Source of the DNA: Escherichia coli
GTDB taxonomy: Bacteria; Pseudomonadota; Gammaproteobacteria; Enterobacterales; Enterobacteriaceae
DNA: 64,000 nucleotides
NCBI RefSeq assembly: GCF_044324875.1
Contig: NZ_CP172185.1
Reading direction: 5' to 3' (one strand)
A model generated the notes under the pieces. The model was not told where the DNA came from. It searched no databases and saw only the letters and a program-made list of their open reading frames with translations. The translations under genes and the position numbers were made by a program. Every line of letters begins with the position of its first letter. Position 1 is the first letter of the stretch. Below are positions 8,361 to 36,485 of this stretch, piece by piece.

Positions 8361-8436
8361 TTAGCGCGTCGCCCAACCCTGTTTGTGCAAATAATCCAGA
8401 ATAAATGGGCGGCTTTCTTTAATGATTGTTCGGCGG
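8361..8436 (-). pseudogene. nfsA: detached 3' tail of nfsA (last ~24 codons, RRTIIKESRPFILDYLHKQGWATR-stop) left behind by the IS1 insertion
   Basis: Reverse-strand reading from the IS1 edge gives an open frame ending at TAA 8361-8363 and continues the NfsA frame across the target duplication. Confidence 0.8.
8428..8436. repeat. IS1 target-site duplication, left copy (GTTCGGCGG)
   Basis: Identical 9-mer immediately flanks both IS1 ends (8428-8436 and 9205-9213). Confidence 0.9.
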
Positions 8437-8491
8437 GGTGATGCTGCCAACTTACTGATTTAGTGTATGATGGTGTTTTTGAGGTGCTCCA

Positions 8492-8767
8492 GTGGCTTCT
8501 GTTTCTATCAGCTGTCCCTCCTGTTCAGCTACTGACGGGGTGGTGCGTAACGGCAAAAGCACCGCCGGACATCAGCGCTATCTCTGCTCTCACTGCCGTA
8601 AAACATGGCAACTGCAGTTCACTTACACCGCTTCTCAACCCGGTACGCACCAGAAAATCATTGATATGGCCATGAATGGCGTTGGATGCCGGGCAACTGC
8701 CCGCATTATGGGCGTTGGCCTCAACACGATTTTACGTCACTTAAAAAACTCAGGCCGCAGTCGGTAA
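8492..8767 (+). CDS. insA: IS1 protein InsA
   Basis: 91-aa [43 protein letters not shown] (zinc finger plus HTH). Confidence 0.95.
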
Positions 8768-9189
8768 CCTCGCGCATACAGCCGGGCAGTGACGTCATCG
8801 TCTGCGCGGAAATGGACGAACAGTGGGGCTATGTCGGGGCTAAATCGCGCCAGCGCTGGCTGTTTTACGCGTATGACAGGCTCCGGAAGACGGTTGTTGC
8901 GCACGTATTCGGTGAACGCACTATGGCGACGCTGGGGCGTCTTATGAGCCTGCTGTCACCCTTTGACGTGGTGATATGGATGACGGATGGCTGGCCACTG
9001 TATGAATCCCGCCTGAAGGGAAAGCTGCACGTAATCAGCAAGCGATATACGCAGCGAATTGAGCGGCATAACCTGAATCTGAGGCAGCACCTGGCACGGC
9101 TGGGACGGAAGTCGCTGTCGTTCTCAAAATCGGTGGAGCTGCATGACAAAGTCATCGGGCATTATCTGAACATAAAACACTATCAATAA
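8686..9189 (+). CDS. insB: IS1 InsB frame (transposase made as InsAB' by -1 frameshift)
   Basis: 167-aa ORF overlapping the insA 3' end in the -1 frame. Confidence 0.93.
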
Positions 9190-9204
9190 GTTGGAGTCAT
9201 TACC

Positions 9205-9213
9205 GTTCGGCGG
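9205..9213. repeat. IS1 target-site duplication, right copy (GTTCGGCGG)
   Basis: Same 9-mer as at 8428-8436. Confidence 0.9.
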
Positions 9214-9860
9214 ATATGATCGCTCCAGGTATCCCGGCGATTATTGCTGCCACGTGTGAGGTAATATTCCGCCAGTTGTTCGTCATACTGCGCCAGTGCG
9301 TCTTTATCCAGCGGTTGATAGCTGTTTTCATGCACCAAAATGGAGGACGGTAAACGCGGCTTAAGATCCGGATTATCCGCAGGCCAGCCAAGGCACAGCC
9401 CAAACAGCGGCAGAACATGCTGCGGTAATTTCAGCAGCTCCGTCACCGCTTCAATATTATTGCGCAGGCCGCCGATATATACCCCGCCCAATCCCAGCGA
9501 TTCCGCTGCGGTTAATGCATTCTGCGCCATCATTGCCGTATCAACGACACCGAGCAACAGTTGTTCCGCCAGGCCGAGCTGAGCATCCGGACAGATCTGT
9601 AAATGGCGGTTAAAGTCGGCACAGAACACCCAAAACTCCGCCGCTTGCGCTACGTGTTTTTGCCCGCCGGTCAGCGCCACCAGTTCTTCACGTAACGCTT
9701 TGTCGGTAATGCGAATAATGCTACTGCACTGCAAAAAACTGGAACTGGACGTCGCACGGGCGCTGTTAATAATCGCCTCACGCTGCGCTTCGGAAATGGG
9801 TTCATCAGTGAAATGGCGAATGGAGCGATGGCCACAAATAAGTTCAATGGTTGGCGTCAT
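9205..9860 (-). pseudogene. nfsA: oxygen-insensitive NADPH nitroreductase NfsA, 5' portion (~218 codons); C-terminus replaced by 7 IS1-encoded residues
   Basis: ORF 9183..9860 reads MTPTIELICGHRSIRHFTDEPIS...DTWSDHIRRT then VMTPTY-stop inside IS1; the native tail lies at 8361-8436. Confidence 0.88.
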
Positions 9861-11224: not shown

Positions 11225-12910
11225 GTGAATATAAACGTCGCCGAATTGTTAAATGGGAATTACATTCTGTTATTATTTGTGGTCCTCGCGCTTGGGCTAT
11301 GTCTCGGGAAATTACGACTTGGTTCGATCCAACTGGGTAATTCCATTGGCGTTTTAGTCGTATCGCTGTTATTAGGCCAACAACATTTCAGCATTAACAC
11401 CGACGCGCTTAATCTTGGCTTTATGCTGTTTATTTTCTGCGTCGGGGTCGAAGCCGGACCGAACTTTTTTTCCATTTTTTTTCGCGATGGGAAAAATTAC
11501 CTAATGTTAGCACTGGTGATGGTTGGCAGTGCGCTGGTGATCGCCTTAGGGTTAGGTAAGCTGTTTGGCTGGGATATTGGCCTGACGGCCGGTATGTTAG
11601 CAGGCTCTATGACGTCGACACCGGTTCTGGTCGGTGCTGGCGATACACTGCGTCATTCCGGCATGGAAAACAGGCAGCTCTCACTGGCACTGGATAATCT
11701 GAGCCTCGGGTATGCCTTAACCTATTTAATCGGTCTGGTGAGTTTGATTGTTGGTGCGCGTTACTTGCCGAAATTGCAGCATCAGGACTTACAGACCAGC
11801 GCCCAGCAAATCGCCCGCGAACGTGGCCTGGACACTGATGCCAACCGTAAGGTTTATTTACCGGTGATCCGCGCCTACCGCGTCGGCCCGGAGCTGGTAG
11901 CCTGGACCGACGGCAAAAATCTGCGTGAACTGGGTATTTATCGACAAACTGGCTGTTACATTGAACGTATTCGGCGTAACGGGATTCTGGCAAATCCAGA
12001 CGGTGATGCCGTACTACAAATGGGCGATGAAATAGCGTTGGTAGGCTATCCTGACGCCCACGCCCGACTCGATCCCAGTTTCCGTAATGGCAAAGAAGTT
12101 TTCGATCGTGACCTTCTCGACATGCGTATCGTCACTGAAGAAGTGGTCGTTAAAAACCATAACGCTGTTGGCAAACGCCTGGCACAACTGAAGTTGACCG
12201 ATCACGGTTGCTTCCTTAACCGCGTCATACGTAGCCAGATTGAGATGCCGATTGATGACAACGTCGTGCTTAACAAAGGTGACGTTTTACAAGTCAGCGG
12301 CGATGCCCGCCGGGTAAAAACCATCGCCGATCGCATCGGCTTTATCTCGATTCACAGCCAGGTCACTGACTTGCTGGCATTCTGCGCCTTCTTTGTTATT
12401 GGGCTGATGATCGGGATGATCACCTTCCAGTTCAGCACATTCAGTTTCGGCATGGGGAACGCTGCCGGGTTGTTATTCGCCGGAATTATGCTGGGCTTTA
12501 TGCGTGCTAACCACCCGACCTTCGGTTACATTCCGCAGGGTGCATTAAGCATGGTGAAAGAGTTCGGCTTGATGGTGTTTATGGCAGGCGTTGGTCTGAG
12601 CGCCGGTAGCGGTATTAATAACGGCCTGGGCGCGATTGGCGGTCAGATGTTGATTGCCGGATTGATTGTCAGTCTGGTGCCCGTGGTTATCTGTTTCTTG
12701 TTCGGTGCTTATGTATTGCGAATGAACCGCGCACTGTTGTTCGGCGCAATGATGGGCGCACGCACCTGCGCGCCGGCAATGGAGATCATCAGTGATACAG
12801 CTCGCAGTAACATCCCGGCGCTGGGCTATGCGGGCACTTACGCAATCGCCAACGTCCTGCTGACGCTGGCAGGGACAATCATCGTCATGGTATGGCCAGG
12901 ATTAGGATAA
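11225..12910 (+). CDS. ybjL: putative transporter YbjL (two-repeat AAE-type transporter with TrkA-C domains)
   Basis: 561-aa ORF with N- and C-terminal membrane halves around a soluble domain. Confidence 0.9.
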
Positions 12911-12952
12911 AACTGAAGTTGCCCTGAAAATGAAATTTTTTTGCACAACCGC

Positions 12953-12981
12953 AGAACTTTTCCGCAGGGCATCAGTCTTAA
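12953..12981 (+). promoter_or_regulatory. sigma-E type promoter of rybB (-35 GAACTT, -10 region GTCTTA)
   Basis: GAACTT about 16 nt upstream of TCTTA, just before the RybB 5' end; RybB is a known sigma-E regulon member. Confidence 0.6.
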
Positions 12982-12986
12982 TTAGT

Positions 12987-13065
12987 GCCACTGCTTTTCT
13001 TTGATGTCCCCATTTTGTGGAGCCCATCAACCCCGCCATTTCGGTTCAAGGTTGGTGGGTTTTTT
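12987..13065 (+). ncRNA. rybB: Hfq-dependent small RNA RybB
   Basis: GCCACTGCTTTTCTTTGATGTCCCCATTTTGTGGAGCCCATCAACCCCGCCATTTCGGTTCAAGGTTGGTGGGTTTTTT matches RybB as recalled, including the terminator hairpin and T-run, in the expected ybjL-rcdA intergenic position. Confidence 0.9.
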
Positions 13066-13084
13066 GTTGCCTATAATTTATCTA

Positions 13085-13621
13085 CTACCCTGCAACCCTC
13101 TCAACCATCCTCAAAATCTCCTCGCGCGATAGCGGCTTACGGTCGGTGACAAAATGCAGCGTCATCCCCTCAATAAACGCATCAAGCGCGCGGGCGGTTC
13201 CGGGTTCAAACCATTGTTCGAGCGTTTGCTGACTGCGCTGCATCCAGTTTTGCATTACCGTTTTTAATAGCGGTTTTCGGCTAGCCAGCGCGTAGAGCTG
13301 GTACATCAGCTCCATGTTATCCGGCGTTGCAACCTGTGAGCTGTAGATCATATCGGTGATAGCCTGGCATGCGCCTTGAGCATCACTAACATCGCTAAAA
13401 AATGCCTGATATTGCCGGGACATGATCTCAGTAAAACTGCTGAACGCCTCCAGCAACAACTCATCAATTCCTGAAAAATAGTAGGTCATCGACCCCAACG
13501 GTACCCCGGCAAGGGTAGCAATTTTGCGGTGCGTAACAGCATGTATTCCGTAAAGTTTCACCGCCTCCAGCGTGGCCTGGATAATTTTTTCTCGCCGTTG
13601 CGGATCGTTAGCGCGACGCAT
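13085..13621 (-). CDS. rcdA: TetR-family transcriptional regulator RcdA (YbjK)
   Basis: Start at [21 protein letters not shown] with an N-terminal TetR HTH; 178 aa. Confidence 0.88.
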
Positions 13622-13704
13622 GTCATTTCCTCTCTCTGCAATTGTGTACAAATGTACACAACCTTGCTAATGTTGTCTTCCCTCTTCTTATTTTGACGTG
13701 ATCT

Positions 13705-14913
13705 ATGACCGTAAATTCTTCACGTAATGCATTGAAACGCCGAACCTGGGCGCTGTTTATGTTCTTCTTTTTGCCGGGCCTGTTAATGGCGTCCTGGGCA
13801 ACCCGTACGCCTGCTATCCGCGATATTCTTTCTGTTTCGATCGCTGAAATGGGCGGAGTCCTCTTTGGTCTGTCGATCGGTTCAATGAGCGGTATTCTCT
13901 GCTCGGCGTGGTTAGTGAAACGCTTTGGGACGCGTAATGTCATCCTGGTCACGATGTCCTGCGCATTGATCGGGATGATGATACTAAGTCTGGCACTCTG
14001 GCTGACATCGCCCCTGCTCTTCGCGGTTGGCCTCGGCGTCTTTGGGGCAAGTTTTGGTTCTGCGGAAGTGGCGATAAACGTTGAAGGTGCTGCCGTTGAG
14101 CGAGAAATGAATAAGACGGTTTTGCCGATGATGCACGGTTTTTATAGCCTGGGCACGCTGGCAGGCGCTGGTGTCGGGATGGCACTGACGGCCTTTGGCG
14201 TTCCGGCAACGGTGCACATTTTATTGGCGGCGCTGGTAGGCATCGCGCCTATTTATATCGCCATTCAGGCAATCCCTGACGGTACGGGCAAAAATGCTGC
14301 CGATGGCACCCAGCATGGTGAAAAAGGCGTACCTTTTTATCGCGATATCCAGTTGCTGCTGATTGGTGTTGTGGTGCTGGCGATGGCCTTTGCCGAAGGT
14401 TCTGCCAACGACTGGTTACCCTTATTAATGGTTGACGGTCACGGTTTTAGCCCTACTTCCGGCTCGCTGATTTATGCCGGTTTTACCCTGGGGATGACTG
14501 TTGGACGCTTTACCGGCGGTTGGTTCATCGACCGTTACAGTCGCGTTGCCGTGGTTCGGGCCAGTGCACTAATGGGAGCGTTGGGTATTGGGCTGATTAT
14601 TTTTGTCGATAGCGCCTGGGTCGCTGGGGTGTCTGTTGTACTTTGGGGACTGGGTGCCTCGCTGGGCTTCCCGCTGACCATTTCTGCCGCCAGCGATACC
14701 GGCCCCGATGCACCAACCCGCGTCAGTGTGGTAGCAACGACCGGTTATCTGGCTTTCCTCGTCGGGCCGCCACTGCTGGGCTATCTCGGCGAACATTATG
14801 GATTACGTAGTGCAATGCTGGTTGTACTGGCGCTGGTTATTCTCGCGGCTATTGTCGCGAAAGCCGTCGCCAAACCCGATACCAAAACGCAGACGGCGAT
14901 GGAGAATAGTTGA
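13705..14913 (+). CDS. ybjJ: MFS transporter YbjJ
   Basis: 402-aa 12-TM ORF. Confidence 0.88.
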
Positions 14914-15728
14914 TGAGCATTAAATTAATTGCGGTAGACATGGATGGTACTTTCTTAAGCGATCAAAAAACCTATAACCGTGAGCGGTTTATGGCTCAGT
15001 ATCAGCAAATGAAAGCACAAGGCATTCGCTTTGTGGTCGCCAGCGGGAATCAATATTATCAGTTGATCTCTTTCTTTCCGGAAATTGCTAATGAAATAGC
15101 CTTTGTGGCTGAAAACGGCGGCTGGGTAGTGAGCGAAGGCAAAGATGTTTTTAATGGCGAGCTGTCGAAGGATGCGTTTGCTACTGTCGTGGAACATTTG
15201 CTGACGCGCCCGGAAGTGGAAATTATTGCCTGCGGAAAAAATAGCGCCTATACCCTCAAAAAATATGACGATGCCATGAAAACGGTGGCGGAAATGTATT
15301 ATCACCGTCTGGAATACGTCGATAACTTTGACAACTTAGAAGATATCTTCTTTAAGTTTGGTCTGAATCTTTCCGATGAACTGATTCCACAAGTACAAAA
15401 AGCATTACATGAGGCCATCGGCGATATTATGGTGCCGGTCCACACCGGCAACGGCAGTATCGATCTGATTATCCCCGGCGTACATAAAGCCAATGGCCTT
15501 CGCCAACTGCAGAAATTATGGGGAATAGACGACAGCGAAGTGGTGGTCTTTGGCGATGGCGGTAACGATATTGAGATGCTGCGTCAGGCAGGCTTTAGTT
15601 TTGCAATGGAAAATGCCGGCAGCGCGGTCGTCGCAGCGGCAAAATACCGGGCAGGCTCCAATAACCGTGAAGGCGTACTGGATGTGATCGATAAAGTGCT
15701 TAAACACGAAGCGCCATTTAACCAATAA
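14913..15728 (+). CDS. ybjI: HAD-family (Cof-type) phosphatase YbjI
   Basis: IAVDMDGT motif and C-terminal GDGGND; overlaps the ybjJ stop. Confidence 0.9.
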   Translation: MSIKLIAVDMDGTFLSDQKTYNRERFMAQYQQMKAQGIRFVVASGNQYYQLISFFPEIANEIAFVAENGGWVVSEGKDVFNGELSKDAFATVVEHLLTRPEVEIIACGKNSAYTLKKYDDAMKTVAEMYYHRLEYVDNFDNLEDIFFKFGLNLSDELIPQVQKALHEAIGDIMVPVHTGNGSIDLIIPGVHKANGLRQLQKLWGIDDSEVVVFGDGGNDIEMLRQAGFSFAMENAGSAVVAAAKYRAGSNNREGVLDVIDKVLKHEAPFNQ

Positions 15729-15812
15729 AACGGCAGCACGCCCGGCAACACAATACCTGAATGAAGGCTGCATAATTCGCGCAAATTAACCCGCTGCATT
15801 ATTTCAGGCGAA

Positions 15813-16097
15813 ATGATTATGAAAAATTGTCTACTGTTGGGCGCGCTTTTAATGGGCTTTACTGGTGTGGCGATGGCGCAAAGTGTCACCGTCGATGTGC
15901 CGAGTGGATACAAAGTGGTTGTGGTTCCTGATTCAGTCAGCGTTCCACAAGCGGTCAGCGTCGCGACTGTGCCGCAAACCGTCTATGTGGCTCCCGCGCC
16001 AGCTCCGGCTTACCGCCCGCATCCTTATGTTCGCCATCTTGCCAGCGTAGGTGAAGGGATGGTTATCGAACACCAGATTGACGACCATCACCATTAA
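15813..16097 (+). CDS. ybjH: small secreted protein YbjH
   Basis: 94-aa ORF with signal peptide; conserved position. Confidence 0.8.
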   Translation: MIMKNCLLLGALLMGFTGVAMAQSVTVDVPSGYKVVVVPDSVSVPQAVSVATVPQTVYVAPAPAPAYRPHPYVRHLASVGEGMVIEHQIDDHHH

Positions 16098-16137
16098 TTT
16101 GAGAATGCCTGATCGCACAAAGCAATCAGGCATTTTT

Positions 16138-17370
16138 TTATCCTTCGTGCGAATTTCCCATCTGTTTATCTTTTAAAAAGATAACCATCAGCAACAGCCA
16201 CAAAATTCCGTTGACAAGGTTGAAGAGATTAAACAGTCCGTTGCCCCCGTTCAGCCAGGCATGTTTGCTGATTTCAATACCGACGGTAAAGATCAGCATT
16301 TGCAGCATCCCCATCGCCGCAGAAACCGTACCTTTACTCATATCGCTGGCAAACAGAGTTAATCGCACCAGTCCCGCATTCGCCAGACCAATACCGAAAG
16401 CATAAAGACTTAACCCGGCGGCCATCCATAAATACGCATGCGATGAGATAACCGTTGCCGCAGCAGCGACCAACAGACCAATCATAATCGGCCAGCCGCC
16501 CATAATAATCAGCGAACGTACGGTGCGGCGCGAGGTCAGACGCGCTAACAGCAAGTTACCCGCAATTAACGCCCCGAAAATAGGCACTTGCAGCAAACCA
16601 TATTCATAGCTGCTTAACTGCTCGCCGGTAATGATGATAATCGGCGACTGGGCGATCCACGCCAGCAACGGCAAACTAACGAATCCCAGCGCCAGCGCCC
16701 CCGCAACAAAGCGACCGTTCTTCAGCACCAGCTTATAGTCACGACCGAGTTCTTTCAGCGACAGTTTCTCGCCTATACGCGTGGCGGTTTCAGGCATGGC
16801 TCGTTGCAGACCGAAAAAGGAGATCGCTGCCAATGCGGCAAACAAGACAAACATCCCTTCCCAGGGCAGCACATGGATCCACGCCGCGCCCACCAGCGGG
16901 CCAAGTAGTGGAGCAATCAGCGCCACGTTCGCCATCAGCGCGGTGATCTTGATACAAACCGCCTCTTCGAAGGATTCCTGAATTGCGGCGTATCCCACAG
17001 CGCCAATGAAACAGAGGCTTATGCCCTGCAAGAAGCGCAACAGAGTGAATTGTTCAATGTTTTGCGCCAGTAATATTGCCAGACAGGTGATGATAAACCA
17101 CACCACCCCCGCCAGCATCACCGGACGGCGACCAATACGATCCGACAGCGGCCCCAGGAGCCATTGTAAAAACATCCCGCCCGCCAGATATGCGGTCATC
17201 GAAGTAGGAACCCAATCAATGCCCGCCTGATATTGTTCCACCACGGCCAACATACCGGGTTGAATCATATCGTTGCCGATATAGGTTGAAAATTCGTACA
17301 GCACCAGACAGAGAGGGAAAAGTAACGCCTGACGTCCAAGCCTGGCACCGGAAGCTAATTTATTTTGCAT
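16138..17370 (-). CDS. mdfA: multidrug efflux MFS transporter MdfA (Cmr)
   Basis: Start at [19 protein letters not shown]; 410-aa 12-TM protein. Confidence 0.93.
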
Positions 17371-17654
17371 GCAATTTCTTCGCCAATAATAATCGCGCAA
17401 AGTTTAATAAAAGCGCAGCTAACGAGAAAGCGAATTTTGTAGCTGAAACCACGGTTAAGCACATTCTTACATTATTGCGAGTATAGCTACGCTTTCTTTA
17501 AGTTTTATTTAACCTATGCCCGTTACAATCACCCACCGTAAACAGGCCGCTTGAGGGAAATAAGACGATGCCGCTTTACCCAGTTTAACCTGCACTTTAT
17601 TCTCAACGACTTGCCTGTATTGGCTCCCTTTTAATCACTTTGCGTCGGGAAGTT

Positions 17655-18251
17655 ATGCTGGAAAATTTGAATCTCTCTCTATTCTCTCTTATTAACGCGA
17701 CGCCAGACTCGGCTCCGTGGATGATCTCGTTGGCGATTTTTATTGCTAAAGATTTGATTACCGTGGTGCCGTTGCTGGCCGCGATACTTTGGTTGTGGGG
17801 GCTTACAGCACAACGGCAACTGGTGATAAAAATCGCTATTGCGCTGGCGGTCAGCCTGTTTGTGTCCTGGACGATGGGACATCTTTTTCCGCACGACCGC
17901 CCCTTTGTCGAAAATATCGGCTATAACTTCCTGCATCATGCGGCGGATGACTCATTCCCGAGCGATCACGGTACGGTGATTTTCACCTTTGCACTGGCAT
18001 TTTTATGCTGGCATCGCCTGTGGTCCGGCTCACTTTTAATGGTGCTGGCCGTCGTCATTGCCTGGTCGCGCGTTTATCTTGGCGTCCACTGGCCGCTGGA
18101 TATGCTCGGTGGATTGCTGGCAGGTATGATTGGCTGCCTTAGCGCCCAGATTATCTGGCAAGCGATGGGGCATAAACTCTATCAACGTCTGCAATCGTGG
18201 TATCGCTTCTGTTTTGCATTACCGATCCGCAAAGGCTGGGTGCGTGACTGA
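17655..18251 (+). CDS. ybjG: undecaprenyl-diphosphate phosphatase YbjG (PAP2 family)
   Basis: PAP2 motifs (PSDHG, SRVYLGVHWPLD); start at MLENLNL. Confidence 0.9.
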   Translation: MLENLNLSLFSLINATPDSAPWMISLAIFIAKDLITVVPLLAAILWLWGLTAQRQLVIKIAIALAVSLFVSWTMGHLFPHDRPFVENIGYNFLHHAADDSFPSDHGTVIFTFALAFLCWHRLWSGSLLMVLAVVIAWSRVYLGVHWPLDMLGGLLAGMIGCLSAQIIWQAMGHKLYQRLQSWYRFCFALPIRKGWVRD

Positions 18252-18308
18252 TCTCTGCTAAAAAGTGTAGTATTGAGCGGCTCGCTTCAATAACTATTCA
18301 GAGGGATT

Positions 18309-19067
18309 ATGGAAACACGTCGCGAAGAGCGTATCGGGCAGCTGCTGCAAGAATTAAAACGCAGCGATAAGTTACATCTTAAAGACGCCGCCGCCCTGCT
18401 TGGGGTTTCGGAGATGACGATTCGTCGCGATCTGAACAACCACAGTGCGCCCGTCGTTTTGCTCGGCGGCTATATTGTTCTGGAACCGCGCAGTGCCAGC
18501 CATTATCTGTTAAGCGATCAAAAATCCCGCCTGGTGGAAGAAAAACGCCGGGCGGCAAAACTGGCTGCGACGCTGGTAGAACCCGATCAGACCCTCTTTT
18601 TTGACTGTGGCACCACCACACCGTGGATTATTGAAGCGATTGATAATGAAATCCCTTTCACCGCCGTTTGTTATTCGCTAAATACCTTTCTGGCACTGAA
18701 AGAGAAACCTCATTGCCGCGCGTTTCTTTGCGGTGGTGAATTTCACGCCAGCAACGCCATTTTCAAACCCATCGATTTTCAGCAAACGCTGAATAATTTT
18801 TGCCCGGATATCGCTTTTTATTCCGCGGCGGGGGTGCATGTCAGTAAGGGCGCTACCTGTTTTAATCTTGAAGAGTTGCCGGTAAAACACTGGGCCATGT
18901 CGATGGCGCAAAAGCATGTGCTGGTTGTCGACCACAGTAAATTTGGCAAGGTGCGTCCGGCGCGCATGGGTGACCTGAAACGCTTTGATATTATGGTGAG
19001 CGATTGTTGCCCGGAAGATGAATATGTGAAGTACGCGCAGACGCAGCGTATTAAGTTGATGTATTAA
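18309..19067 (+). CDS. deoR: deoxyribose operon repressor DeoR
   Basis: 252 aa with N-terminal HTH (LHLKDAAALLGVSEMTIRRDL). Confidence 0.93.
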   Translation: METRREERIGQLLQELKRSDKLHLKDAAALLGVSEMTIRRDLNNHSAPVVLLGGYIVLEPRSASHYLLSDQKSRLVEEKRRAAKLAATLVEPDQTLFFDCGTTTPWIIEAIDNEIPFTAVCYSLNTFLALKEKPHCRAFLCGGEFHASNAIFKPIDFQQTLNNFCPDIAFYSAAGVHVSKGATCFNLEELPVKHWAMSMAQKHVLVVDHSKFGKVRPARMGDLKRFDIMVSDCCPEDEYVKYAQTQRIKLMY

Positions 19068-19075
19068 TGACGTAT

Positions 19076-19104
19076 AACCGGATGACGTTTCGCGCCATCC
19101 GGTT
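19076..19104. terminator. bidirectional hairpin between convergent deoR and dacC (AACCGGATG ... CATCCGGTT)
   Basis: 9-bp perfect stem with 11-nt loop in a 46-bp convergent intergenic region. Confidence 0.6.
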
Positions 19105-19113
19105 ATCAGAAGA

Positions 19114-20316
19114 TTAAGAGAACCAGCTGCCGAACCACTGATGGAATTTCATCATCACGAAATCCCACATCCGACCAAAGAATCCCCCCTCTTCCACATT
19201 TTCCATCACGATCAGCGGACGCTGCTCAATGGATTTACCGTTAAGCTGGAAATCAATGGTGCCGACAACCTGACCTTTTTTCAGCGGTGCGGTAAGCTGC
19301 GGTTCCGTTAACGTGTAGCTCGCTTTCAGGTTTTTCAGCTGCCCACGCGGTATGGTCACTGAGCCCGCTTCGCCTGCCCCGAGATTCACTTCGCTCTTAT
19401 CACCAAACCAGACGCGCTGAGTCACAAAGGTGGCATCAGGTTTAATTGGCGTCACGGTTTCAAAGAAGCGGAAACCCCAGGTCAATAATTTCTCAGACTC
19501 ATTAAAACGGATACGGTCAGTTTTCGCACCCAGTACTACGGAGATCAAACGCATATCGCCCTGGGTAGCCGAAGCAACCAGATTATATCCCGCGCCTGCC
19601 GTGGTTCCTGTCTTCATGCCATCAACATTCAGATTGCTGCTCCATAGCAGACGGTTACGGTTAGGCTGTCGAATTTTGTTGAAGGTGAACTCTTTCTCTT
19701 TATGAATGGCATACTCTTCCGGCACATCGTGGATCAATGCTTTACCCAGCAATGCCATATCGCGCGCGGTACTGAACTGCCCCGGCGCATCCAGACCGTG
19801 CACCGTCTGGAAGGTAGTGTTGGTCAGACCCAGTTTTTTGGCATAACCATTCATCAGACCAATAAATGACTCCTGGCTCCCGGCAACGTAATCGGCCAGC
19901 GCAATACAGGCGTCATTACCGGACTGGATAATTACACCTTTGTTCAGGTCTGCCACCGAAACCTGATCGCCCGGTTTAAGGAACATTACCGATGAACCAC
20001 GCAGTGCCGGATTTCCCGTCGCCCAGGCATCTTTACCGACCGTCACCATATCGGTGAGTTTAATCTTATCGGCCTTAAGCGCCTGCCCAACCACATAGCT
20101 GGTCATGATTTTAGTCAGGCTCGCGGGGTCCAGTTTTTCATCCGCATTGCCTTCTGCCAGCACTTTACCGCTGGCGTAATCCATTAAAATCCATGCACGC
20201 GCATCCACGCTCGGCGCTTCAACGGTTTGTTCCGCCGCGAATGCCGTTGGGGCAAAAAGGAATAAAAATGCAGAACCCGCTGCAAGACCACGAAGGAGAG
20301 AGGAGTATTGCGTCAT
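19114..20316 (-). CDS. dacC: D-alanyl-D-alanine carboxypeptidase DacC (PBP6)
   Basis: SLTK active-site motif, signal peptide; start at [10 protein letters not shown]. Confidence 0.93.
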
Positions 20317-20562
20317 AAATGCCACCCGAGTATCCATTCAAAAAAAATACGTTATATCGCCGTATGATAAGTTCGGTGATTAATAACGCACACACAAACT
20401 TAAAGAAACCGTAAGTTGGTAAAGTTTTTAAAGTTTATGCAATATCCTGCCGCTTCGCTGCTTCTGGTGTCATTTTTTTGCCAGCTGTTGCTTAAAAGTT
20501 AACTTTACTTCACCATCGGAGTCCTGTTCAGCCTGTGGCTGCCTGTCGGAAAAGGGGTGAGT

Positions 20563-21189
20563 ATGATTACGCTGTGGGGTCGGAATAATTCAACCAACGT
20601 AAAAAAAGTATTGCTGACGCTCGAAGAACTGGAACTACCTTATGAGCAAATTCTCGCGGGCCGTGAGTTTGGGATAAATCACGATGCTGATTTTCTGGCG
20701 ATGAACCCTAACGGGCTGGTGCCGTTGTTGCGTGACGACGAAAGTGATCTCATTCTTTGGGAATCAAACGCCATTGTCCGCTATCTGGCGGCACAGTACG
20801 GGCAAAAACGCCTGTGGATCGACTCACCGGCACGTCGTGCGGAAGCAGAAAAATGGATGGACTGGGCAAACCAGACGCTCAGTAATGCTCATCGCGGGAT
20901 CCTGATGGGATTAGTCAGAACACCACCGGAAGAGCGCGATCAGGCCGCCATTGATGCCAGTTGTAAAGAGTGCGACGCCCTGTTTGCCCTGCTCGATGCG
21001 GAACTGGCAAAAGTAAAATGGTTCTCTGGCGACGAGTTTGGTGTGGGCGATATCGCTATCGCTCCGTTCATCTACAATTTGTTTAACGTTGGCCTGACCT
21101 GGACACCGCGTCCAAATCTGCAACGCTGGTATCAGCAACTCACTGAACGCCCCGCAGTGCGCAAAGTGGTGATGATTCCCGTTAGCTAA
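20563..21189 (+). CDS. gstB: glutathione S-transferase GstB (YliJ)
   Basis: 208 aa from [16 protein letters not shown]. Confidence 0.9.
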
Positions 21190-22300
21190 TTGCGTGGGCT
21201 AACTTTAAGTAATTCCCCACTGGACTCGTCGGTGAGAACGTATAAATAACCGTCGGGTCCAGTGCGAACATCACGAATTCGCTGCCCTCTGTCCGTTAAA
21301 ATACGGCCATCTTCTGTCACTTTGTCGCCGTTGACGCTCATCACAATGACATCTTTATCTTTCAGCGCGCCAATAAATAATTTTTGCTGCCACTGGGGGA
21401 ATTTATCGCTGTTATAGAAGGCCATGCCGCTCACGGCGGGCGAATCTTTCCAGTAAAAAACAGGTTGCTCGGTCCCGGCGACGATCTCCCCTTTCGCTTC
21501 CGGTATCTTAAAGCCTGAATAGTTGATTCCCCAGGTTGCCAGCGGCCAGCCGTAGTTTTTGCCTTTTTGCGGGATATTAATTTCATCGCCACCGCGCGGG
21601 CCATGTTCATTCAGCCATAGTGCATTACTCCACGGATTCATCGCCATTCCTTGCGGATTACGAATGCCATAAGACCAGATCTCGGCGCGCGCACCGGATT
21701 CCTTTATAAAAGGATTATCATCCGGGATTTGCCCTGGTCGGTCAGACGCACCAGTTTGCCCTGTAATTTATCCAGATCCTGCGCCGTCGGGCGCTGATTG
21801 TTTTCGCCCAGAGCAATAAAAAGATAACCTTTACCGTCGAATACCAGCCGCCCGCCAAAATGGTTGCCGGTAGACAGTTTTGGCATCTGGCGAAAGACGG
21901 TGCGGAAGTCGGTCACCTTTGAGAGATCATCACTTAAGCGGCCATAACCCACAGCAGTTCCGGCTTTGCCATCATCGCCAACTTCGGAATAACTTAACCA
22001 GATGCGGCGAGACTGAGCAAAATCAGGCGCTAAAACCACATCCAGCAGGCCACCCTGCCCGTGCGCCCAAACTTCCGGCACTCCGGAAAGCGGCGCAGAT
22101 AATCCTTTTCCTGCTTGCCAGTGACGCAACTCGCCGCCGCGCAGAGTGATTAACATACCGTGATTGTCGGGTAAAAAGGCCAGCGCCCAGGGATGGTCGA
22201 GTTTGTCCTGCAGTACTTCGACATTTACCGTTGCAGGAGCCGCCCAGAGAGCGGAAGAAAGACAAATAAGGGGCACAAGGAAAAAGGATTGTCGATGCAT
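21186..22300 (-). pseudogene. yliI: soluble aldose sugar dehydrogenase YliI, split by a frameshift near 21710-21735 into 198-aa and 153-aa ORFs
   Basis: Upstream frame ends ...LTDQGKSRMIILL-stop; the adjacent frame is open from QIPDDNPFIKESGARAEIWSYGIRNPQG into MAMNPWSN...; a single-base indel would restore one ~371-aa beta-propeller protein. Confidence 0.8.
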
Positions 22301-22383
22301 AACGCCTCCGGATTGACTCTGGCTTAAAGCGTAGTCAGTGGAGGAGATAACAAATTCATTTTTACAAAAACTTAAACATGAAG

Positions 22384-22403
22384 GGGGAGACGCTTTCTCC
22401 CCC
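22384..22403 (-). terminator. hairpin GGGGGAGA-CGCT-TCTCCCCC downstream of bssR
   Basis: Perfect 8-bp GC-rich stem followed by a T-rich tract on the minus strand. Confidence 0.65.
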
Positions 22404-22410
22404 TTAGTTT

Positions 22411-36410: not shown

Positions 36411-36485
36411 TTGCCACCTCCAGGCCTGATAAGACGCGGCACTCCGCCACGTCATCAGCAATTTATGAGGATGCAGAACGTCCGG

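Follow-up and report, generated by a model that had tools for sequence, protein, structure and literature searches.

The closest described counterpart of the locus reported here is the soluble aldose dehydrogenase YliI of Escherichia coli, also named Asd, which has been crystallised (PDB 2G8S). The intact protein matches 2G8S at an E value of 9e-244 and consists of a single GSDH domain (PF07995, profile positions 1-332); the chain in the crystal begins with residue 21, as expected after removal of a 20-residue signal peptide. A distant homologue is sGDH of Acinetobacter calcoaceticus (PDB 1C9U/1CQ1), also a six-bladed PQQ/Ca propeller, which shares 31% identity with YliI over 285 residues. Its catalytic histidine and its PQQ and calcium positions align with those of YliI, and it was used here only for residue mapping. 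In the six-bladed beta-propeller fold, His144 of sGDH is catalytic, Lys377 and Arg408 bind PQQ, and calcium is bound via two main-chain carbonyls (PMC6881789). E. coli cannot make PQQ, which both Gcd and Asd need (bioRxiv 10.1101/2022.06.07.495086), and YliI is typically low in abundance (PMC13088180).

We analysed a stretch of 64,000 nucleotides from the E. coli contig NZ_CP172185.1 (assembly GCF_044324875.1), hereafter the window. Its yliI (asd) gene lies on the minus strand at 21186..22300, in the bssR-yliI-gstB order that is usual when the neighbours are compared with reference E. coli, and the convergent gstB overlaps its 3' end by 4 nt. GSDH homology, near-identity to known yliI and the flanking bssR and gstB identify the gene as the yliI orthologue: the locus, the DNA, the signal peptide and the codons are those of E. 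coli YliI/Asd (2G8S, PF07995), bar one base. What sets it apart from intact YliI/Asd is a frame broken at codon 191: the domain is in two parts, neither ORF encodes residues 191-218, and the window contains no continuous ORF of about 371 codons that could encode the whole six-bladed propeller.

The initial annotation had described yliI as split into ORFs of 198 and 153 amino acids, and both are present in the ORF list. The 5' ORF (21704..22300, minus strand) encodes 198 amino acids with the C-terminal end ...LTDQGKSRMIILL, a stretch that is also written ...KLVRLTDQGKSRMIILL in the ORF list. It comprises the signal peptide (residues 1-20), native residues 21-190 and then eight out-of-frame residues, KSRMIILL, followed by TAA. 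On the minus strand, this frameshifted tail occupies 21704..21730 and reads AAA TCC CGG ATG ATA ATC CTT TTA before the premature TAA. Translation of 21186-22300 in one frame stops after residue 198, and the native continuation, QIPDDNPFIKESGARAEIWSYGIRNPQGMAMNPW..., is present in another frame. The 3' ORF (21186..21647, minus strand) encodes 153 amino acids with the N-terminus MAMNPWSNALW..., corresponding to native residues 219-371 from Met219, and has no signal peptide. A possible Shine-Dalgarno sequence, AAGGA, is located 6 nt upstream of its second ATG (Met221), and the Logan gene caller starts the ORF at this second ATG, giving 151 amino acids. Judged from these signals, weak independent translation of the 3' ORF is conceivable. 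The DNA for intact residues 191-218 (EIPDDNPFIKESGARAEIWSYGIRNPQG; 21648..21730, minus strand) is in its native frame in neither ORF.

To locate the lesion, we aligned the window gene to an intact allele, the yliI of E. coli strain 7/2, which is found in the order bssR-yliI-gstB-dacC and spans 1116 nt. It encodes 371 amino acids, the length that had been assumed for the intact protein. The window gene is 1115 nt long; the alignment contains a single gap, and the other 1115 columns are identical. Missing at the gap is G571, with which codon 191 (GAA, Glu) of the intact gene begins; in the window it would lie between 21730 and 21731 (minus strand). The initial annotation had placed a single-base indel near 21710-21735, and the alignment narrows this range to one junction. 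In the gene-strand context CCAGGGC[G]AAATCCC, where the bracketed base is the missing one, the lost G stands alone between C and A. The site had been called homopolymer-adjacent; GGG and AAA runs do adjoin it, but the lost G itself is in no homopolymer. A Dcm site (CCAGG) ends 3 nt upstream of the deletion. Within 21700-21760, a gene with the continuous 371-codon frame would read GGGCGAAATCCC.

The lesion has the features of a frameshift pseudogene. Alignment to the intact allele shows an indel that is not a multiple of three and no compensating indel, and the premature stop, 8 codons past the shift, leaves 48% of the GSDH profile. No IS element or scar was found inside yliI, either in the alignment to the intact allele or by mapping of IS1. 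IS-mediated disruption of yliI was considered and rejected, the IS1 copy in nfsA being 12 kb distant and that in dgcI/pdeI 3.6 kb. The ORFs, the premature stop, the alignment and the split of the domain all agree with the view in the initial annotation that yliI is inactivated by a frameshift. We therefore consider, with a probability of roughly 0.88, that yliI is a frameshift pseudogene in this strain and arose by a spontaneous one-base deletion.

The distribution of the allele was surveyed by megablast of positions 21100-22400 against 5,426 complete RefSeq E. coli genomes. yliI/gstB was matched in all but two of them (5,424/5,426), so the gene is nearly universal, and the best matches were 99.9% identical and one base longer than the query (1302 against 1301 nt). 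With a 70-mer that has the deletion at its centre, the deletion allele was found in none of the 5,403 complete RefSeq E. coli genomes matching the site, the best match being 98.6% identical with one gap. This absence from the complete-genome set points to a lesion that, on the genomes compared, is private to this clone and recent. Searches with the whole gene and with the 70-mer also yielded no close relative in the complete RefSeq set that carries the same allele and could be used for dating the mutation.

One alternative is that yliI is intact in the strain and the missing G is a consensus error, such as nanopore base-calling might produce near a Dcm-methylated CCAGG or near the GGG and AAA runs. 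The deletion is located 3 nt past CCAGG, between GGG-C and AAA, which is a context for systematic nanopore base-calling errors, and an error, too, would be seen in no other complete genome. However, the missing base is outside any homopolymer, and the window contains 153 CCWGG sites. A systematic error mode, or an assembly that was noisy overall, should have damaged more genes, yet only one coding indel was observed. This count comes from an alignment of the window with two reference stretches of strain JNEC-KY178, covering about 58 kb, in which there are six gap positions; the yliI deletion is the only one of them in a coding region, the other five falling between genes. The intergenic indels against the references include a variable, repeat-like stretch between moeB and fsa (36420-36440) and a single base between ldtB and ybiR (51003).

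A public read-derived assembly also bears on this question. The exact 198-aa product, including its out-of-frame tail, is found in the public protein collection on one contig only (Logan). This contig, SRR31072984_64 (16,710 nt), is reported for 2 samples. It aligns with positions 11704-25886 of the window over 14,183 nt at 100% identity and without gaps, the deletion included. It is a product of a separate k-mer assembly, which amounts to independent sequencing only if the window genome does not itself come from the SRR31072984 run. The contig begins 27 nt inside the IS1 copy at 25860-26627, and its other end, placed from its length, falls about 28 nt inside the IS1 copy at 8437-9204, so that this assembly recovers both IS1 junctions as well as the deletion. 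From its breaking only at IS1 repeats, we infer that the underlying reads are accurate. Because the read-derived contig carries the deletion and breaks only at IS1, an assembly artefact is unlikely. The sequencing error that the initial annotation had left as an alternative thus sits poorly with the Logan contig, the lack of a homopolymer at the lost base and the single coding indel in about 58 kb, and we regard a genuine deletion as much the better reading.

We then examined what the deletion would do to the protein, aligning YliI to the A. calcoaceticus sGDH sequence, which was checked to be identical to that of PDB 1C9U. The 5' ORF covers GSDH profile positions 1-158 of 332 (E value 3e-53), while the 3' ORF covers positions 186-332 (E value 3.5e-58). 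Some of the residue roles used below, namely those of sGDH Arg228, Asn229 and Arg406 and of Gly247/Pro248 as the calcium-binding carbonyls, were reportedly described by Oubrie et al. in 1999. The catalytic His144 of sGDH corresponds to YliI His147, which is now in the 5' ORF. Arg228/Asn229, said to bind PQQ, correspond to YliI Arg214/Asn215 (RNPQG motif), which are now in neither ORF. The remaining positions are now in the 3' ORF: Gly234/Pro235 (sGDH Gly247/Pro248, reportedly the residues whose main-chain carbonyls bind calcium), Lys314 (sGDH Lys377, PQQ binding) and Arg341/Arg343 (sGDH Arg406/Arg408, PQQ binding, that of Arg406 reportedly). Thus, in the alignment to sGDH, the catalytic histidine and the PQQ and calcium residues no longer lie on one exported polypeptide.

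Translation from the native start would give a 198-residue precursor that could be exported via its intact signal peptide. The exported product would amount to about the first half of the six-bladed propeller, keeping His147 and lacking Arg214/Asn215, Gly234/Pro235, Lys314 and Arg341/Arg343. Because the 5' product lacks these aligned binding residues, the half-propeller would be expected neither to close nor to bind PQQ or calcium, and it would probably be degraded. The 3' half, if translated, would lack a signal peptide and should stay in the cytoplasm. The predicted outcome is the loss of soluble aldose dehydrogenase activity, and structure and homology together argue strongly for loss of YliI function. 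A polar effect is not expected, as the gene that follows, gstB, is convergent.

The cost of this loss is probably small, and the loss near-neutral, because E. coli cannot make PQQ. Without scavenged PQQ, YliI is left as an apo-enzyme, and periplasmic glucose oxidation is covered by Gcd, which is a membrane enzyme. The gene is evidently dispensable in some settings, as natural yliI-null alleles occur elsewhere. In these, the same gene is broken in independent isolates and the same 153-aa 3' ORF is left, whereas the lesions and their positions differ, and the G571 deletion is in none of those inspected. An exact-sequence look-up found the same 153-aa 3' ORF on 103 contigs in the public collection. 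One independent knock-out is a nonsense mutation, G218* (ERR212625, SRR13318272). In another (SRR11347986), a Mu-like prophage (GemA, Mor) adjoins yliI at gene position 653. Contigs of five more runs stop exactly there, which is probably the same prophage junction. In addition, the metagenome scaffold L006 lacks yliI gene positions 411-654.

With the G571 deletion, G218* and the Mu-like insertion in one gene, it is tempting to speculate that loss of yliI is recurrent and adaptive rather than a matter of neutral drift. We consider this improbable. If it were true, periplasmic PQQ-dependent sugar oxidation or the apo-protein would be costly in some host or drug-exposed niche. In the window, the yliI lesion co-occurs with nfsA knocked out by IS1 and with an IS1 deletion that affects the c-di-GMP enzymes dgcI/pdeI.

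There are two IS1 copies in the window, each of 768 bp (8437-9204 and 25860-26627), 100% identical and inverted relative to each other. The first is a simple insertion at 8437-9204 in nfsA (about 8364-9860, minus strand), flanked by the 9-bp target duplication GTTCGGCGG, and it cuts the NfsA nitroreductase after residue ~217-221 of 240. The same junction was not found in complete RefSeq E. coli, in which only non-identical IS1 events were found nearby; IS1 is present in or beside nfsA at other positions in 42 complete E. coli genomes. Loss of nfsA leads to nitrofuran resistance. With IS1 recurring at nfsA in 42 genomes, drug selection fits better than passive decay, and nfsA::IS1 is likely to be a nitrofuran-resistance lesion.

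The second copy, at 25860-26627 (flanks 25336-27811), lacks a target duplication and stands in place of 1,970 bp of reference sequence. The deletion removes DgcI residues 1-267 and PdeI residues 397-782, the last 386, a pattern of loss that would be expected from an IS1-mediated adjacent deletion. Its junction was not found in the complete E. coli genomes searched; with both IS1 junctions missing there, the clone itself is not represented in that set. The two copies are 16,655 bp apart and, being inverted, form a substrate for inversion; an inversion between them was considered and rejected, as the segment is collinear with the references. The IS1-bounded segment is 99.76% identical to JNEC-KY178 and the flanks are 98.3-98.8% identical, a contrast that, on these alignments, suggests a recombination mosaic.

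The initial annotation had combined the yliI frameshift with the IS1 events into a picture of ongoing gene decay in the lineage. In its full form this would be lineage-wide reductive evolution like that of Shigella, with IS expansion and relaxed selection as its drivers. Damage is indeed seen in four genes of the 64 kb (nfsA, dgcI, pdeI and yliI), but about 53 of the approximately 57 reference genes compared are full length. Moreover, none of the complete genomes searched has the yliI lesion or either IS1 junction, which argues for recent, strain-specific events, and the recurrent IS1 at nfsA points to selection there. Accessory islands are present, and the identity of the window to ordinary E. 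coli of human and animal origin is 98-99.9%. Reductive evolution is therefore an unlikely explanation. The Shigella reading that the IS1 copies had prompted was rejected, since the accessory blocks are those of ordinary E. coli and nearly all genes are intact. The case for gene decay is weak given a strain-private lesion, ~53 of ~57 genes intact and an nfsA insertion that looks selected. The strain is a normal E. coli that has recently acquired a few lesions of its own.

Between rlmC and glnH, the window is collinear with the chromosomes of ordinary E. coli. At its left end (1-632) is an accessory block with PTS IIC/IIB and a sulfatase between artJ and rlmC, which is present in 566 complete genomes and absent from JNEC-KY178. 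A RelE/ParE-family toxin and HTH antitoxin pair is located at 24558-25260 between rimO and dgcI; it is intact and also found in JNEC-KY178. At the right, a genomic island (58570-64000) lies in the glnH-glnP intergenic region and parts glnH from glnPQ. It encodes a tyrosine integrase (58736-59929), a TPR protein (60295-61350), an ISAs1 transposase remnant and an EcsC-family protein. Of the complete genomes, three align through the glnH junction of the island, and 6 others match only the island itself.

Two further readings would leave YliI functional, and both can practically be dismissed. A programmed -1 ribosomal frameshift restoring full-length YliI has nothing more in its favour than the overlap of the two frames: the shifted arrangement occurs in 0 of 5,403 genomes, all others having a plain in-frame gene, and GGC AAA TCC CGG ATG ATA ATC CTT TTA TAA contains no X XXY YYZ heptamer, so that a programmed frameshift gene of the prfB or dnaX type, with its conserved shift and slippery site, was rejected. 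Equally remote is a split enzyme whose two products assemble non-covalently into a working propeller; strong GSDH similarity is kept in both halves, and the 3' ORF is called by the Logan gene caller and has AAGGA 6 nt ahead of its second ATG, but the 3' product has no signal peptide, which would put the halves in different compartments, residues 191-218 with the RNPQG motif are in neither ORF, and the arrangement is one mutation old and conserved nowhere.

Together, our results favour a frameshift pseudogene produced by a one-base deletion. The locus should be annotated as one yliI pseudogene with a frameshift at codon 191, not as two short GSDH-domain proteins, and the strain as YliI-null. 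A public read-derived assembly such as Logan can address whether such a lesion is a real mutation or an assembly error without raw reads, and the deletion together with the two private IS1 junctions can serve to recognise this clone. Of the lesions in the window, nfsA::IS1 has the greater clinical relevance. The yliI lesion makes an ordinary, strain-private pseudogene out of a gene that is well characterised and conditionally useless, and it matters little beyond annotation.
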